DNA from: a virus
Direction: 5' to 3' (one strand)
Length of the DNA: 12,770 nt
Virus genome (UHGV): UHGV-0246522
Shown piece after piece: positions 2,305 through 11,253 of this stretch. The position numbers and the translations under genes were made by a program. The notes under the pieces are model-generated. The model was given only the letters and a program-made list of their open reading frames with translations. It was not told the origin of the DNA and made no database searches. How positions within the stretch are numbered: position 1 is the first letter of the stretch; the number at the start of each line of letters is the position of its first letter.

Positions 2305-4395
2305 CTACATATTCACGCATGATATATGCTCAATAATCACTGTCATCCGCCCGCTTGCAGCGGTGGTTCCAGCGATTTTTTTTACAACTAAATTGTTTTC
2401 AGCAACTGTGACCACGATAGATCCAACGTTTGTTTGTGTTTTTACTCCAGCGACTGATTCTATATAATATGGCAATGATAACCCGAAGAACCAGTATCCT
2501 TCTGTGAATAGCTTTGCTGCATGCTCATCCCTGTTTGAGTTATACATTACAGATATTTTTACTGCCGTTTTTCCATTTGTTGTCTTTATTGGTATTAAAA
2601 GTGTTGTAGATTCATTTTCAGCTACGTCTGCAGTTACTGCATAGATGCGTTGAGATGTATCGGAATTTACGTTAGTTAGCGTATCAAACCCTCTGCAATT
2701 ACTTACTTGACGAAATAAAACATCAAGAAAAGTTGTAACCCCTGGCAATGGGTCAAGATAATACAATGGTGCGATATTTCCATCGCCAAGATTGAGGTTT
2801 TGCACCCGTACTATAGCCTTCACATACGCAGAGGAACCTCTGCTTATTTGAATTACAGCAGTTGGCACCGTTCCTGCCATTCCTGACGACTGAATGTTTC
2901 TGAAGATAACCTCTTTGAAGAGATATACATTAAAATTTGTGTTTCCTGTATTGCTATACAGAAATCCAACATTCTCTATTATGGCATTACATTTTATATT
3001 TTCAGCAATGTAACCATCATATGTATTCGGCGAGTTATTATAAAATGATACCAGACGAGAGATAATATCTGACGGATCTTCGCAGTTGACGTCAATATTT
3101 CGCAAAGAAATACCTCGAAATGTCGGTGCTCCACTGACAAGACCACCTGAAACGATTGACTGTGGGGCTGCTCCGTCAGCATAGAAGCAACTAAGTCCGT
3201 CTAGAGAACCTCCTGCCTGCAAGTCTACTGCTGACTGCCCAGCAGCAACAGCAAAGGCCTGTGTGCGCCGCTCTACAATATTGCTCACCCGAGAGTTCAT
3301 TATCTGTGATTTGACTGATCTCTTCTGGCAGTCTTCAAAATACGAATCACTAATATCAAATACTGCTGATAAATAGTTAGGGGATGATGCATATATCCCA
3401 TCCGCATCCTGATATGGTCCAACTCGGAATACTGAAATATTCCTAACATAGCAATATTCAAAGTTTTGAACCATAAACCCGCGACCAACATTAGAACCAC
3501 CTGAGCTTGAAATATCATAAGCTGAGGAATCTGACAGCCTAATCTCTTTCCATCTAAACAATGAGCCTGCCGTAATATATGCAGCAGTTGATAATCCTGT
3601 GTCAATTGCTTCCCTAGCGTTTCTTCCAGAATAGCCTGAAATAGATATTTTTGCGTTGTTATCGGATGAAAGCGCATAGAGTAGCTTTGCAGCATTGTTC
3701 TTGCCGTCAATGGCAATATCCTCTATGGAAAGAACGGATGAGCACGTTATTTTTAAAACAAATGGACTTACTGCTCCAGTATAGATAATAGTTCCATTTC
3801 TTATTGTTGTTTTTTTGTTGAAAACAACACTAATCATCTCGCTTGTTTTAATTGTCATTCCAGACAGGTCGATAACATACCCATCATATCTATTTAGCAA
3901 ATAGATTAATTTTTCTCCTTCATCTGTCCCATCACCAGTTATTCCTGCCGATGATGGCGTAACATAATATATAGCACTTTGAACTGTTCCACCCTGCTGA
4001 AGGGGGATCATATCCGCACCTTTTCCTTTTCCTGTGGATGTAATTTCCTTCCTTAACTGATCAGGGTCGTATTTCAGCACATTAGGGAAATAAAACTGCT
4101 GCGCACCATATGCATCATAAATAGCCATAGAGTGGCCTTGCACAGTTACGAACTTGGCAATCTGTCCGTTATATACAGGATAACCAGCGGCGTTAATGAT
4201 GATTGGCTGCGAAACAGGAACGTGAGAACCATCCTCATTCTCCACATAAACCTGAATCTGGTTTTCAGGATTTACCGGGTCAGTGTCAATTTTTCCTATA
4301 TAAATTTTGCCATTGGCTACGGCTTTAAAAGAACGAGCCATAGTGAAGAGTTGCGAAGGCATCGATACGATCACATTGGCTGTAATGTCTGTCAT
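2305..4395 (-). CDS. P22-like tailspike protein: conserved N-terminal head-binding domain, divergent receptor-binding domain
   Basis: N-terminus [58 protein letters not shown]...[13 protein letters not shown]...NVLKYDPDQ matches the head-binding domain of P22 gp9, Sf6 and HK620 tailspikes as I recall them. The remaining ~580 aa are Gly/Ser/Asn-rich, consistent with a beta-helix. GGAG lies 9 nt upstream of the ATG. Confidence 0.85.
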
Positions 4396-4451
4396 TTAAT
4401 TTGCTCCAGATACAAGGAATCGCCGCAGCATGGCTACGGTGAATTTTGGGC

Positions 4452-4495: not shown

Positions 4496-5398
4496 TCAGT
4501 AGTTATGTACTGAAGGAGGTAATTCTTTATTCTTAAGTCTCATCCATGCGGAAAGATTCGTTGGTCCGTCTGGCTCATTAATATCAACATCTCGTGTGTG
4601 GTTTATTAAAACGTCTCTCGCCATTCCGATAACATACGAGAACTCATGACCGTAGTCGTAGCATCTGCCGGAATAGTTCGATTGAATTTGTTTTAGCGCC
4701 GGATACAGTTCGCGGAATAATGCCTGTGAGCGGTTGGCATAATCCCATAACCATACAAGGCTGTTTGCTTCTTTTGCAGAAAGCTCGTTGGTTTTCTTCT
4801 CTTGTTTGCCGATGAACTCGCCTTCAAGCACTACCCTGTGGATGTACTCTACTGCTTGCGGTATCTGAGATGAATCAAGCTCTTCAATACTTTCCACGTT
4901 GAAACGCTGATGAATCATTGCATAAGCTTCTGGGTACATTAGATGCTTTTTGCTGACTAGCATATTTACAGCATCACGAAGCGGAGTCCTGTCATCAACA
5001 GATGTTTTCTTACGTGCATTTTCTGCCTTTCCCTTCGTCCAGTAGTCATGCAGCACAGTAAAGCATTCTTCCTGGTACTGAATCAGTTTATCGCGGATGT
5101 CAGCACGAACTTTCTCAGGGTTGATGCTGAACAGCCATCCATTTAACTTCTTCAAAGGAAGGCAGAGTAGCTTACGAAGCTTACCATCAGCGGCAACCAT
5201 GTTCATATGAACATGGTTGAATTTGCTAATCTGCTTCATGAGTTTTGTTTGCTGCGTTGACCAGCTCATTCCAAGGTTTTCAACGATTGGCTTCATCGCA
5301 ACATATGCAACTCCGGCAGTCATGGCGGTGATAATCTGCTGACCATTGAAAGGTACGTAAGAGGTGTTCACTGCTTCTAAAATTGCTATACTATTCAT
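4496..5398 (-). CDS. ant: Antirepressor Ant (P22 immI-type)
   Basis: 300-aa product from the ATG at 5398 with GGAG 9 nt upstream; lies directly downstream of arc and upstream of the tailspike gene, as in P22 immI. The track ORF starts 22 codons further upstream with no support. Confidence 0.85.
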
Positions 5399-5399
5399 G

Positions 5400-5468
5400 T
5401 TGGTTTTTCTCCACGAATTTACTGACAACAGAAGCCCTGACTGTTCCCGCAGTTGGGGCTTCAACTTT
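5400..5468 (+). ncRNA. sar: sar-like small antisense RNA covering the ant ribosome-binding site and the arc-ant intercistronic region
   Basis: Plus-strand promoter inside the ant 5' end (-35 TGTTCA 5365-5370, 16-bp spacer, -10 TATACT 5387-5392). The predicted ~69-nt transcript is antisense to the ant SD and start and ends after a hairpin (GAAGCCC 5431-5437 pairing with GGGCTTC 5456-5462). This matches what is known of P22 sar. Confidence 0.4.
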
Positions 5469-5628
5469 ACGCGCCAATACGCCCTTCCTTCTTAAAGCTG
5501 TCCATTACTCTCTGATAAATCTCAGAGTTAACAGACCGACCATTCTCTTCCGCCACCTTGCGTACCAAATCCAATACTTCTTTAGGCCACCGCAAATTGA
5601 ACTGCGGCATTTTGCTCATTCCTTTCAT
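5467..5628 (-). CDS. arc: Arc repressor (ribbon-helix-helix)
   Basis: 53-aa product [53 protein letters not shown], nearly identical to P22 Arc as I recall it. The track ORF start at 5691 falls inside the arc operator and is rejected. Confidence 0.9.
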
Positions 5629-5718
5629 GTTCACCTCACAATATAGGTCCACGGTGGACCTATTGAGAATATAGTAGAGTGCTTCTATCATGTCAATACA
5701 CTAACTTGGAGTGATGGC
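5629..5718. promoter_or_regulatory. immI control region: mnt operator, arc operator, divergent Pant (minus) and Pmnt (plus) promoters
   Basis: Perfect 21-bp palindrome ATAGGTCCACGGTGGACCTAT at 5643-5663 (P22 mnt operator type) and ATAGTAGAGTGCTTCTATCAT at 5671-5691 (reverse complement of the P22 arc operator as I recall it), lying between divergent arc and mnt. Confidence 0.75.
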
Positions 5719-5973
5719 ATGGCTAGAGATGATCCGCACTTTAACTTCCGCATGCCTTTGGAAGTAAGAGAAAAATTAAAATACAGAGCAGAGTCAAATG
5801 GTAGATCAATGAACTCAGAATTGTTGCAAATCGTCCAAGATGCTCTATCGAGACCATCTCCTGTAAAAGGTTATCGCAATGAAGCTGAACGATTAGCCGA
5901 GATGCAGGCTGAACAGTTCAAGTCTGTGGTATTTGAGACACTTAAAAACATGTATGGCAAGGATGCAAAATGA
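5719..5973 (+). CDS. mnt: Mnt repressor (maintenance of lysogeny, Arc/MetJ family)
   Basis: 84-aa product MARDDPHFNFRMPLEVREKLKYRAESNGRSMNSELLQIVQDAL..., clearly homologous to P22 Mnt; divergent from arc-ant. Confidence 0.9.
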   Translation: MARDDPHFNFRMPLEVREKLKYRAESNGRSMNSELLQIVQDALSRPSPVKGYRNEAERLAEMQAEQFKSVVFETLKNMYGKDAK

Positions 5974-6551
5974 TCGATTACAACCCAGCAAAAAAAGAAA
6001 TCATCGCAGCTAAAAAGTGCCTAGAGCAGATGAAATCATCTACAAACCATGATGATTTTGAAATGCACTGGCGAGAATGTCTTGGGCATATAGAAAAGTC
6101 TTTCAGTAAGTTGCTCTGTGCAACAAAGCCGGTTAGTGGAAAATTTAGCAGCCACTTCAACCAAAAGTTCATGCTTAGAAAAACAGACAAAACACTTGCT
6201 TACCTTCACCAAGCAAGAAATGCTGATCATCATTCCACTATGGAAATCTCAAAACTTGAACCTCCTTATACTACTCTTGGGGCATTTCCGGGAGCAAGAA
6301 GCCATTATATTAAAGAGTTAATCATTGATTCAACAGGGAAAATAGCAAAATACGAAGGCGACCCTATGATAGTTGAGTTTCATCCAGCAACAACTATGCC
6401 TATAACCGTAAGAAACCAAGGCAAAGATTATCCACCTCCAACAGAACATCTTGGCGAAAAGCTTGTTGATATACATCCATCTGTTCTTGCCTATCTCGGT
6501 ATACAATTTTATGAAAAATGGATAGATGAGTCGTGTGCAACGTTTAGATAG
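5970..6551 (+). CDS. Hypothetical protein, translationally coupled to mnt (candidate accessory gene)
   Basis: 193-aa ORF whose ATG overlaps the mnt stop in an ATGA arrangement (5970-5973), with an AAGGA SD 8 nt upstream inside mnt. No family recognised by eye. Confidence 0.6.
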   Translation: MIDYNPAKKEIIAAKKCLEQMKSSTNHDDFEMHWRECLGHIEKSFSKLLCATKPVSGKFSSHFNQKFMLRKTDKTLAYLHQARNADHHSTMEISKLEPPYTTLGAFPGARSHYIKELIIDSTGKIAKYEGDPMIVEFHPATTMPITVRNQGKDYPPPTEHLGEKLVDIHPSVLAYLGIQFYEKWIDESCATFR

Positions 6552-6768
6552 TTATTTTTGATAATTTCAAGTATTTCCTCTTGACTTTGATTTACCCAAA
6601 CGTGATCACACTCATGAAACCAGATTATGCTTCCTGTTTCGCCTTGTGCAATATAGGTGATCATGTTTTCATTAACAATTATTACTGAGTTATCATGTGC
6701 GCAATTTAGTTTTATCAATTCGCATATCCTATCGTGACAAAGTAACTAGAAAAACTAAAGAGGTTGGT

Positions 6769-7263
6769 GTGTCTGATTCTATGAGTTACGCTGTGCTAGT
6801 TGCCGCAACTCTATTTATGGGGATAGGGTTGCAGATTGCGTGGTTCTTTTTTTCTAGTTTTATTAAACGCAAAAGAATTGAATCAAGGATATCTGAGATT
6901 TCTATTGCTATAGGGAAAAATGCTGAAAATCCAGAGAATGAGACCTGCGCACTGAATTACCTTAAAGAAAAGTTTTCCCCTGAAAAATTTGAAAATAGAA
7001 TTACTGATGCTCTTGGATTGGTAATATCAGTAATTCATATGCCACTAAGTTTGCTGATAACAGTGTGGTACTTCGCCATGATCGCCGGAAGAATATTTGG
7101 TTTCATGAATATAGAGCCTGTAGTTCTTTGGGTTCCAATGATACTGCAACTGTTGTTAAGCGTTGCTATCTTTATTTTTTCTGTTTTTATAAAAATTGTC
7201 TTTGGAAGATACCCCGGAGAAGCTAAGGGATTTAATAAAGAATTCATAAAAACTATAAAATAA
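6769..7263 (+). CDS. Small inner-membrane protein with three predicted TM helices, in the position P22 uses for sieA (putative superinfection exclusion protein)
   Basis: GTG at 6769 is 5 nt after AAGAGG; an alternative ATG lies at 6781. Three hydrophobic segments ([82 protein letters not shown]). Located between mnt and the gp16-like gene. The 6697 start in the track has no RBS. Confidence 0.55.
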
Positions 7264-7285: not shown

Positions 7286-9127
7286 CTACTGCCGGGTCGC
7301 TTCGTTAGCTAAGAGCGGGCGCACGGCAGTAGCAGCCTGATTTAGCGCTCTTTCATAAGCTGGCGTTCCAGCTTTAGTGTTTGCCAGACGTAAGAGCGCA
7401 TTCCTTGCTGCTTTGGACTCATACAAACGCATCATTGCACCAAAACCAGCCTCAATCCCCATTGATACTCCAAGAGTCGCAGTTGCGCCAATCGTCCTTA
7501 TCCTGTTGGCTTGTGATTGTCCCGTCTGAGTTACTACATTTGCGGTGTCTGACCTTGTTGTTTGCTGTAGAACTTCATGAAGAGCATCGAGCTCTTTCAT
7601 GTGCTTTCCAGAAAAAATAGTGTTGTAAATTTCACCGCCTGACTGAGATTTAAGCTTATTAACTTCAGTGATGAACTTGGCTGGAGAGTCACCGGCCTTT
7701 TCCGCTATTTTGCTGACGTAAGCTGCACGCATAGCATCTTTCCCTTTATCATCCAATGCGCTCCAGATTCGTTTCACGTCAGATGGTTTTCTGCTTAATA
7801 CAACGGTATTTATAAGTTCAGGACTGGCTTCACTGCTTGCCTTGTTGAGCTTGTTGGCAATGTTTTTATTAAGCACCTTATTATAAACGTTTGCATAATC
7901 GGAATTTGCTTTAAGGTATTTTGCTGCGTCTGATGCACCGAGGTTTTTAGCAACTGCGTTACGAAGGTCTTTTGACATTGCATTCTCTACCATATTGGTA
8001 GCTGCTTTTGCCTGGTTGGGGAAGACCATAGCATCTCCCTGAACATTAGATCTAAATGCAGTTCTGTGCTGACGCAAGAGATCAAACGTAACATCCAAAT
8101 CAGTTGCAGGGTTTGCTAATTCTTCGCGTAGGTTACGCAAGGATGTAAGCAGGCTTTGATTGGCAGACGTCCCAAGCCGTTCCTGTCTTGCGATCGCTGT
8201 ATTCAGAGCATTCATAGTGTTTGTGGTATCAACTGCGGCATTCCCCATTTTATTGGTGACGTCATTGATAACAGCGCCAGCGGCATCCTTCCGTCCCCTT
8301 AACGTGGTGGTCAGAGATTTCACCACATCATCCGGGTTGTACTCACCAAAACGGTCAAAATAATTACTTACCAACTTACTACGCGTTGCATATTGCTCCG
8401 CTCGCTTTGAGCCTGTCCCGAGCAAAGCCCCCTCGGCATCCTGAGTAAGGCCGCGAGTGAAAGCATTTTTCGGCGGGATAACATCAGATGTCATTGGTGT
8501 CACGCCCATCGATTCTGATGTGGCAATTTTCTTCGCCACTTCTGGCGCAATATCACCTTTTATAGCCGTTATTCCACGCCCTATTCCCTTTGCTGCTGCG
8601 GAAAGAACCCCCTGAGCGGCAAGGTTAACTCCGGCATTTTTAGCTGCATTTTGTGCGAAATCGCCTTTCTGATTTGCGGCCTCTGCCAGTGATCCAATAG
8701 CCATGCTTCCTGCCGTTCCAACTCCTGGAACTAAATACCCACCAATTGTTTCACCGGCTTGTGCGTATGGGTCTGTCGGTCTGTCTACTGGACGATAAAC
8801 ATCATCCAAAACCTTGGGTCCACCAAGCCCCTGACTGATTGCATTAATCAGACTTGCGCCGCCCTGCAATACGTCAAATGGTATGTTTACCAGACCACGA
8901 CCAGCCTGCTCTGCAATTTGCCCTGCACTTTGACCACCTGTGAGCCAATCGCCAGCTTGTTGCATCAATGATGGTTCTTCACGTGCTGGTTCATTATTGG
9001 CCTGATTAACTGTTTGTTGCTGAACAGCCTGACCAGCAAAATACTCATCAATGGCGGTGCCAATATCTTCCGTGCTCGTACCATCAGGGAAGGTAAATGT
9101 CTTACCGTTTGCAGTTACTTTCATCAT
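7286..9127 (-). CDS. Ejection (DNA transfer) protein, P22 gp16-like
   Basis: 613-aa product starting [33 protein letters not shown], Ala/Gly/Asn-rich, in the gp16 position after the gp20-like gene and before the sieA-like slot; its start overlaps the upstream stop (ATGA at 9124-9127). Confidence 0.8.
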
Positions 9128-10077
9128 TCCACCGTAAATTGAATGCCTGATTTTGAGGTATATGATCCAACCTGATTCCGTGGTTCTCCTGAAGGTGTCG
9201 AATCTTGTGCTGGCGCTGCGTCAGTATTCATTGACATATACCGCTTAACGGCACTCCCCAATGATTCACCTTTTTTAACATCCAACCCCAATATCTGACC
9301 GCCATTACGCGATTGTCCAGGGTTGCCATTCGCGCTCATCCACTCGGCTTTAAACTCATTAAACTGCGCGTTTCGTCGCTCAAGGTTTGCCATTGCATCA
9401 AGCCATCTTGCTACCGTCTCAGGGTTATCCATGTCAGTTGGAGCACCCTGTCGAACGATCTCAACGTCTTTATCCGTTGCGGGGCCGGGAGGTAGGAATT
9501 TAAGAACCTGACTGTTAACAAGGGCATTTTGGCGGATGCGCAAATCACGCAATGTTGTATCGCTTCCGGTAAGTTTTGCGAACATGTTCTGTGCGTTACC
9601 GAACAAACCTGTCGTTGGTTTTTCTGCTCTGAACTGTTGAGCAAGCGCACTCATAGAATTGGCTGAGTTTGATGATGCTGTAGCATTGTTTACAGCCGTC
9701 TCGATGCCTTTTTCCATGTTTACTGACAGCTTAGGTGCTTCGCTAATCAACTGCTGAGCCTTTTCCTGTGCTTGCTGCATCTTAAACCCGAACTCTTGCT
9801 GATCCAGAGCCAAGCGTTGTGCTGCGATATTGTGCCCAGTCATTGCTGACTGATAGGAAAGGTTTTGCCCTCTCGCCTGAAGTGCTTCTCCAGCCTGATT
9901 GCTGCGGATTGTCTCTGCCAGTTTGCCTCGGTCAATTTCACGACCAGCCATCTTGTCCTGAACAGCAAACGCCTTTTCTGGTCCAAGCGCACCGAGAGAC
10001 ATAGTAGTCAGCATGTGTGATAGCTGCTCTGGATTCTGGATACCTGTCTGAATCATCCAGTCAGCATTCGCCCCCAC
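9124..10077 (-). CDS. C-terminal portion of an ejection protein (P22 gp20-like); reading frame interrupted upstream
   Basis: 317-aa ORF (GTG at 10077) ending in ATGA overlap with the gp16-like start. Upstream of about 10135 this frame becomes Cys/Trp-rich and non-protein-like, while the adjacent frame becomes protein-like, indicating a frameshift. Confidence 0.6.
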
Positions 10078-10082
10078 GCGAT

Positions 10083-11253
<1,171 letters not shown>

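Follow-up and report, generated by a model that had tools for sequence, protein, structure and literature searches.

The closest described counterpart of the locus treated here is the sar RNA of phage P22, an antisense RNA of about 69 nt that is made by the phage and represses translation of the antirepressor gene ant (Liao et al. 1987 and Wu et al. 1987, both cited in PMC2629481; PMC7968456; PMC3134472). It has also been detected by small-RNA sequencing in P22 infection (PMC13397905). The database records of P22 and of the Salmonella phage epsilon34 annotate sar, its promoter Psar, the genes arc and ant, and the Pant/Pmnt region at homologous positions. A P22-type immunity-I (immI) module is made up of mnt, arc and ant, the divergent promoters Pmnt and Pant, and the operators of Arc and Mnt. 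The 1987 work of Liao et al. is also said to describe convergent transcription from Pant and Psar as interfering with each other.

The DNA analysed here, called the window below, is a stretch of 12,770 nucleotides from a viral genome (UHGV-0246522), numbered along one strand from its first letter. Positions 5399-5466 on its plus strand are very probably the sar gene of a P22-type immI module, which would make an antisense RNA against the ant leader. This is an RNA family that is already known, in its canonical context. The finding matters mainly for correct annotation, since we are dealing with a near-identical copy of a textbook antisense regulator; the RefSeq annotation of the matching E. 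coli genome contains no ncRNA feature for sar. Only two points are mildly new, and only mildly so: the DNA of Psar is conserved even where the ant genes are unrelated, and a deleted prophage has kept its immI module intact.

A predicted RNA of the sar family in the arc-ant spacer

The Rfam covariance model for sar (RF00262) matches the window at 5399-5466 (+) over its full length (model positions 1-68 of 68) with 91 bits and an E value of 1e-18, about twice the gathering score of 43. With the same model, the sar RNAs of P22 and epsilon34 score 97.8 and 95.6 bits. Over positions 5300-5720 the window is 97.2% identical to epsilon34 and 93.3% identical to P22, and within the RNA 64 of 68 bases are the same as in P22. 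The first-pass annotation, made from the letters alone, had recognised an arrangement of the P22 sar type and had proposed alignment to the P22 sar region as a check; both the full-length family match and the near identity bear it out. The arc-ant spacer, counted from the arc stop codon to the ant ATG, has 68 bases and is filled exactly by sar. The RNA is 68 nt long by the Rfam model, and by the P22 annotation it would extend up to 5468 (70 nt).

The plus strand folds into two hairpins with a free energy of -28.2 kcal/mol (z -5.2; 0 of 200 shuffles as good), whereas the complementary minus strand reaches -18 kcal/mol (z -1.2). Stem-loop I (5399-5426, +), found in the minimum free energy fold and in compensatory changes among relatives, carries in its loop the anti-Shine-Dalgarno sequence CUCC (5409-5412), which lies opposite the Shine-Dalgarno GGAG of ant (5412-5409). 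Stem-loop II (5431-5462, +) is the long hairpin that had already been noticed in the spacer. It has 14 base pairs, including three G.U pairs that are possible on the plus strand only, and is predicted to be a terminator from its fold and from the P22 record, which labels the homologous stretch as the sar terminator. The hairpin is followed by AACUUU (5463-5468), a poor U-tract, and the efficiency of termination is assumed to be that of P22.

In one respect the earlier description has to be narrowed. It had the transcript antisense to both the ribosome-binding site and the start codon of ant. The start of sar at 5399, which is given by the Rfam model and by the P22 annotation and lies 7 nt after the -10 element, means that the ribosome-binding site with its GGAG is covered, but that the ant AUG is excluded, being missed by one base.

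By analogy with P22, the RNA would act as follows. An extended -10 sigma-70 promoter (TGcTATACT, with a weak -35) inside ant codons 3-12 would fire towards arc and give a transcript of 68-70 nt that ends at the 14-bp hairpin, shortly ahead of the arc stop codon. The genes arc and ant would be co-transcribed from Pant, and because sar is encoded opposite the arc-ant spacer, it is perfectly complementary to the ant leader on the arc-ant mRNA, Shine-Dalgarno included. Pairing with this leader would block ribosome binding, and antirepressor synthesis would stop. In this scheme sar would be a post-transcriptional lock on top of the transcriptional repression of Pant, which Mnt exerts in the lysogen and Arc late in infection, and the antirepressor withheld would be one that could otherwise inactivate the prophage repressor. 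That the RNA is produced, that it has these exact ends and that it represses translation of ant is thus what the P22 work would lead one to expect here.

The Psar promoter and its conservation in relatives

On the plus strand, TGTTCA (5365-5370), a 16-bp spacer (5371-5386) and TATACT (5387-5392) can be read inside codons 3-12 of the minus-strand ant gene, which is where the first-pass annotation had located its promoter. The -10 element of that promoter stands, while the -35 has to be put in another register. The RefSeq record of P22 gives Psar as a feature of 29 bp (GTGTTA-17-TATACT), which implies a 17-bp spacer and makes GTGTTC (5364-5369) the homologous and conserved -35 in the window. The two overlapping hexamers together give a -35 region at 5364-5370 (+), assigned from the sequence and from P22 homology. 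TGTTCA with the 16-bp spacer matches the consensus at 3 of 6 positions and GTGTTC at 2 of 6, a slight advantage that exists in the present variant only; the window and the viable phage epsilon34 have a C in this region where P22 has an A. The extended -10 had been overlooked. It consists of TG (5384-5385), a C and TATACT (5387-5392), occupies 5384-5392 (+), falls into ant codons 3-5 (Ser-Ile-Ala) and is the same in P22 and epsilon34. A 141-nt alignment of the window with these two phages shows this element (TTGCTATACT) and both sar stems to be identical in all three. Judging from general knowledge of promoters, the TG probably makes up for the weak -35.

It is worth noting that a promoter of this quality does not stand out by its letters. 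A simple sigma-70 consensus scan of the window does not list Psar, because its -35 matches at fewer than 4 of 6 positions. The window contains 59 sites of equal quality (a -10 of at least 5/6 with a -35 of at least 3/6), and dinucleotide shuffles contain 54 +/- 9; with the additional TG the figures are 3 and 4.3 +/- 2, neither count being above chance. The well-spaced promoter of the earlier description is therefore present, yet its hexamers alone are at chance level; for this reason the pattern is not used as evidence here, and the support for Psar comes from homology and conservation. On this footing Psar is a predicted promoter inside the first ant codons, directed towards arc.

Homologues for the comparison came from three sources: divergent BLAST matches in phages and E. 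coli, loci with relatives of Ant in 185,579 species genomes, and viral contigs picked solely by the terminator hairpin (123 loci). Since the contigs of the third source were picked by the hairpin alone, the promoter found in them is an independent observation. These 123 loci contain 23 different N-terminal 20-mers of ant, which fall into nine families with unrelated residues 6-20. Over the nine families, T1, A2 and T6 of the -10 are invariant (2.0 bits), the extended -10 TG reaches 1.2 and 1.5 bits, and the G of xTGxxx at 17-bp spacing is invariant in the -35, the rest of which is loosely conserved. The end of the -10 is always 6 bp before the start of sar, the base after the ant start codon. 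How well the hexamers are kept in relatives had been set beforehand as a test; the -10, which is kept across nine unrelated coding families, passes it, and the -35 is kept only loosely.

The variants of the -10 among the families (TATACT, TACACT, TAAACT, TAAGCT, TAAATT, TACAAT and TACATT) encode different amino acid pairs in Ant, namely SI, SV, SL, NL, IV and NV, so it is the promoter and not the peptide that is conserved. The -10 and its TG thereby dictate residues 3-5 of Ant, (S/N/I)(I/V/L)(A/S), and Psar shows how a promoter can constrain the N-terminus of a protein that is encoded on the opposite strand. That the DNA of the -10/TG is conserved in unrelated ant genes is good comparative evidence for a functional Psar throughout the family.

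The structure of the RNA is conserved as well. In 15 diverse homologues, 96.5% of the pair cells are standard pairs, compared with 34-44% when the partners are slid by 1-3 columns, and compensatory changes are found in 7 of 19 pairs, a figure reached by 0 of 500 shuffles. In stem-loop I, columns 5 and 27 pair as GC in 7 sequences, as AU in 6 and as UA in 1, and in stem-loop II both-sided changes are found in 5 of 14 pairs. G.U pairs account for 56 of the 285 cells in the per-pair table. These cells would be A.C mismatches on the ant strand, which means that the constrained structure is that of the sar strand. Two members of the alignment, Erwinia phage Midgardsormr38 (without an RF00262 match at E up to 1) and Klebsiella phi17.1 (a weak match of 27 bits), were included as outliers only.

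These comparisons weigh on a reading in which the hairpin serves the minus-strand arc-ant mRNA only, be it as an attenuator, a processing site or a stabiliser, with hexamers that are a by-product of ant coding and with no antisense RNA at all. The complement of the hairpin is present in the arc-ant transcript too, and the promoter pattern by itself is, as described, not above chance. Such a reading does not sit well with a minus strand that folds poorly compared to the plus strand, nor with a stem in which about 20% of the pair cells would turn into mismatches on that strand. Coding constraint cannot explain a -10 and TG kept across nine unrelated coding families, and for P22 there are observations of the RNA itself (PMC13397905; Liao et al. 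1987, cited in PMC2629481). An exclusively minus-strand role is accordingly given very little credence here. The reading as a terminator or attenuator of arc on the minus strand was rejected on the strand asymmetry of the fold and on the G.U pairs.

RF00262 matches of 48-85 bits are found in Entomohabitans, Lonsdalea, Pluralibacter, Cronobacter phage ES2, phage SPN3UB and lambda-like prophages of E. coli O157:H7 and MS196-1, all of them equally placed, in antisense and abutting the ant start. Sub-threshold matches are found in Citrobacter sedlakii, phage SEN22 and a Klebsiella phage. In distant Ant loci (Pasteurellaceae, Neisseria and others) the Rfam scan finds no sar, and these loci are therefore unusable for comparing the RNA. 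What they carry is a different motif: sRNA-Xcc1 (RF02221, 53-83 bits) lies on the sense strand about 55-140 nt upstream of Ant relatives, in place of an antisense sar, in Pasteurellaceae, Neisseria, Pectobacterium, Desulfovibrio and some MAGs (loci L008, L010, L012-L018, L020, L022 and L024-L026). This suggests a different leader element for the same ant gene family.

A further observation concerns the terminator hairpin. In more than 120 viral contigs (L036-L155) its 32 nt (5431-5462 in the window) recur unchanged, three free loop positions excepted, while the flanks differ on both sides, with nine ant N-terminal families at one end and several 3' sequences at the other. A constant hairpin between varied flanks fits a mosaic "boundary sequence" at a point of module exchange, and in the record of phage CUS-3 the ant-mnt interval is labelled "bsq2; boundary sequence". 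One could go further and regard the likeness to sar as nothing other than such a shared recombination linker between phage modules, without any RNA function. In the window, though, the match goes beyond the hairpin and takes in the promoter, stem-loop I and stem-loop II, and in more distant relatives the hairpin covaries where it is variable. The stretch could serve as a linker and encode an RNA at the same time, and a linker without an RNA seems to us scarcely credible. The sar cassette of promoter, RNA and terminator behaves as a portable unit that has been joined to at least nine unrelated ant N-termini.

The immI module and its host prophage

The genes around sar make up a complete immI module. 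The antirepressor gene ant (4496-5398, -) encodes 300 aa with both Pfam domains, P22_AR_N (7e-45) and P22_AR_C (6e-30); its ATG is at 5398-5396 and its Shine-Dalgarno GGAG at 5412-5409. The Arc repressor gene arc (5467-5628, -; 53 aa; Pfam Arc, 8e-31) has its stop codon at 5469-5467, abutting the 3' end of sar. The homologues of these two genes are annotated as Ant and arc in the P22 and epsilon34 records. The Mnt repressor gene mnt (5719-5973, +; 84 aa) matches Pfam Arc (3e-27) and Repressor_Mnt (3e-11). Between arc and mnt, at 5640-5696, lie the divergent, overlapping promoters Pant and Pmnt with the Arc and Mnt operators, assigned from a promoter scan and from identity to P22. Pant (5696-5668, -) reads TTGACA-17-TATATT and agrees with the consensus at 11 of 12 positions, and Pmnt (5663-5691, +) reads TTGAGA-17-TATCAT and agrees at 10 of 12. 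From 5654 onward (alignment column 35) the window is identical to P22, including the annotated Arc operator and both promoters; in the Mnt operator the central base alone is different. With mnt, arc, ant, the Pant/Pmnt pair and the operators all present and near-identical to P22, the whole immI circuit is intact, and by its sequence the module is of the P22 type.

Downstream of mnt, an ORF of 193 aa (5970-6551, +) overlaps the mnt stop codon (ATGA) and fills the stretch between mnt and sieA, the variable "ant moron" slot. No Pfam domain is found in it, and its sole match is phrog_23516, of unassigned function; in E. coli Combat2C1 it is annotated as a hypothetical protein. The next gene is a SieA-like superinfection exclusion gene (6697-7263, +; phrog_7745, 2e-108, residues 25-188), the true start of which is probably about 24 codons downstream of the listed GTG.

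Over positions 5340-5480 the window has 100% identity to E. coli Combat2C1, whose copy of the module belongs to a P22-like prophage beside tRNA-Arg and intS, and similarity to the sar region is found in 830 of 5426 complete E. coli genomes (about 15%). The order in the window is tRNA-Arg(CCT), int, tailspike, ant, sar, arc, mnt, the 193-aa ORF, the SieA-like gene and gene 16, and further on a shortened gene 20, a fragment of gene 7 fused to a cro-like fragment, cI and two ORFs of unassigned function; N is annotated in matching genomes. The tRNA gene is argW (777-851, +). It is followed by an IntS-type integrase gene (977-2170, +), the neighbour of the tailspike gene at the tRNA end of the prophage, as in CUS-3 and Combat2C1. 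The tailspike gene (2305-4395, -) encodes 696 aa with a P22-type head-binding N-terminus. Similarity to P22-like Salmonella phages begins in the window only at about 4183-4427, at the N-terminal end of the tailspike, and the receptor-binding part is consequently a different module.

At the other end, P22-like similarity ends at 10343 and similarity to the immC region begins at 10363, which makes the element a remnant of an E. coli argW prophage without head, lysis and replication genes. The traces of the deletion are visible in several genes of the window region 9124-10540. The gene-20 homologue has only 317 aa and covers profile positions 155-509, and in a 118-aa ORF (10083-10439, -) a C-terminal part of gene 7 is joined to an N-terminus of the Cro/repressor kind. 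Directly after this fusion comes the cI repressor gene (10540-11253). In E. coli UMNF18 the same junction is annotated as two partial pseudogenes.

A host prophage that is a deletion remnant may have a module that is no longer important for a phage life cycle. In line with this, sar could be genuine by descent and functionally idle, a relic that has not yet decayed. The fusion of gene 7 to a cro fragment near 10343-10363, the shortened gene 20 and the pseudogenes of UMNF18 are what one would see in such a case. The module itself looks otherwise: the ant gene is complete and encodes both domains, arc and mnt are undamaged, the operators and promoters agree with those of P22 exactly or almost exactly, sar differs from P22 at unpaired positions only, and identical copies exist in other E. 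coli and in four of the hairpin-selected loci. Intact parts together with identical copies suggest either a recent deletion or continued selection, and we consider an idle sar unlikely.

The loss of head, lysis and replication genes next to an intact immI also raises the possibility that the module is retained by selection. Under this idea mnt-arc-sar-ant, with cI, N and sieA, would be kept in the remnant because Ant could act in trans on the repressors of other lambdoid phages, resident or incoming, with sar as the safety catch. We put this forward as a speculation with a small chance of being right, and the portability of the sar cassette described above is the better supported of the two proposals.

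Comparison with known systems

Other cis-antisense RNAs that occlude a ribosome-binding site are IS10 RNA-OUT and lambda OOP. Together with the c4 RNA of P1 and P7, which controls icd-ant, they resemble sar in being small and structured and in silencing the translation of a potentially harmful gene. The c4 RNA of P1 likewise controls an antirepressor in a region called "immI". Its targets are repeated sites from the same transcript; OOP works through cleavage by RNase III. To our knowledge, none of the three has sequence or structural homology to sar.

Within the sar family, the sar-like RNAs of phage SPN3UB and of the lambda-like prophages of E. coli O157:H7 (48-85 bits) have the same antisense placement and the same promoter geometry as the RNA of the window. 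They differ from it in having unrelated ant N-termini and a different, covarying stem-loop I, and in the type of phage, with a siphovirus tail operon. In lambda-like prophages of E. coli O157:H7 FRIK944 and MS196-1, the tail genes L and K (C40 peptidase) have between them an inserted, complete mnt-arc-sar-ant module whose ant N-terminus is a different one (L028, 1501-2300; L030, 1501-2350).

Epsilon34 is the closest phage record. It shares with the window the C in the -35 region and loop II, and differs by two substitutions in sar (positions 18 and 32) and three in the flanks of the 141-nt alignment; its neighbouring moron genes are different. In P22, sar has the same place (in the arc-ant spacer, in antisense, with its 5' end abutting the ant ATG), the same length, the same two hairpins and extended -10, and the same neighbouring genes and operators. 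The four substitutions between the two RNAs (positions 16, 18, 32 and 48) are all in loops or in the linker, that is in unpaired positions, and the A-to-C change in the -35 region comes in addition. The larger differences from P22 concern the surroundings: the host is E. coli and not Salmonella, and the module sits in a deleted prophage at argW, whose tailspike (696 aa) is a different one and whose CI/N immunity region is of the lambda type.
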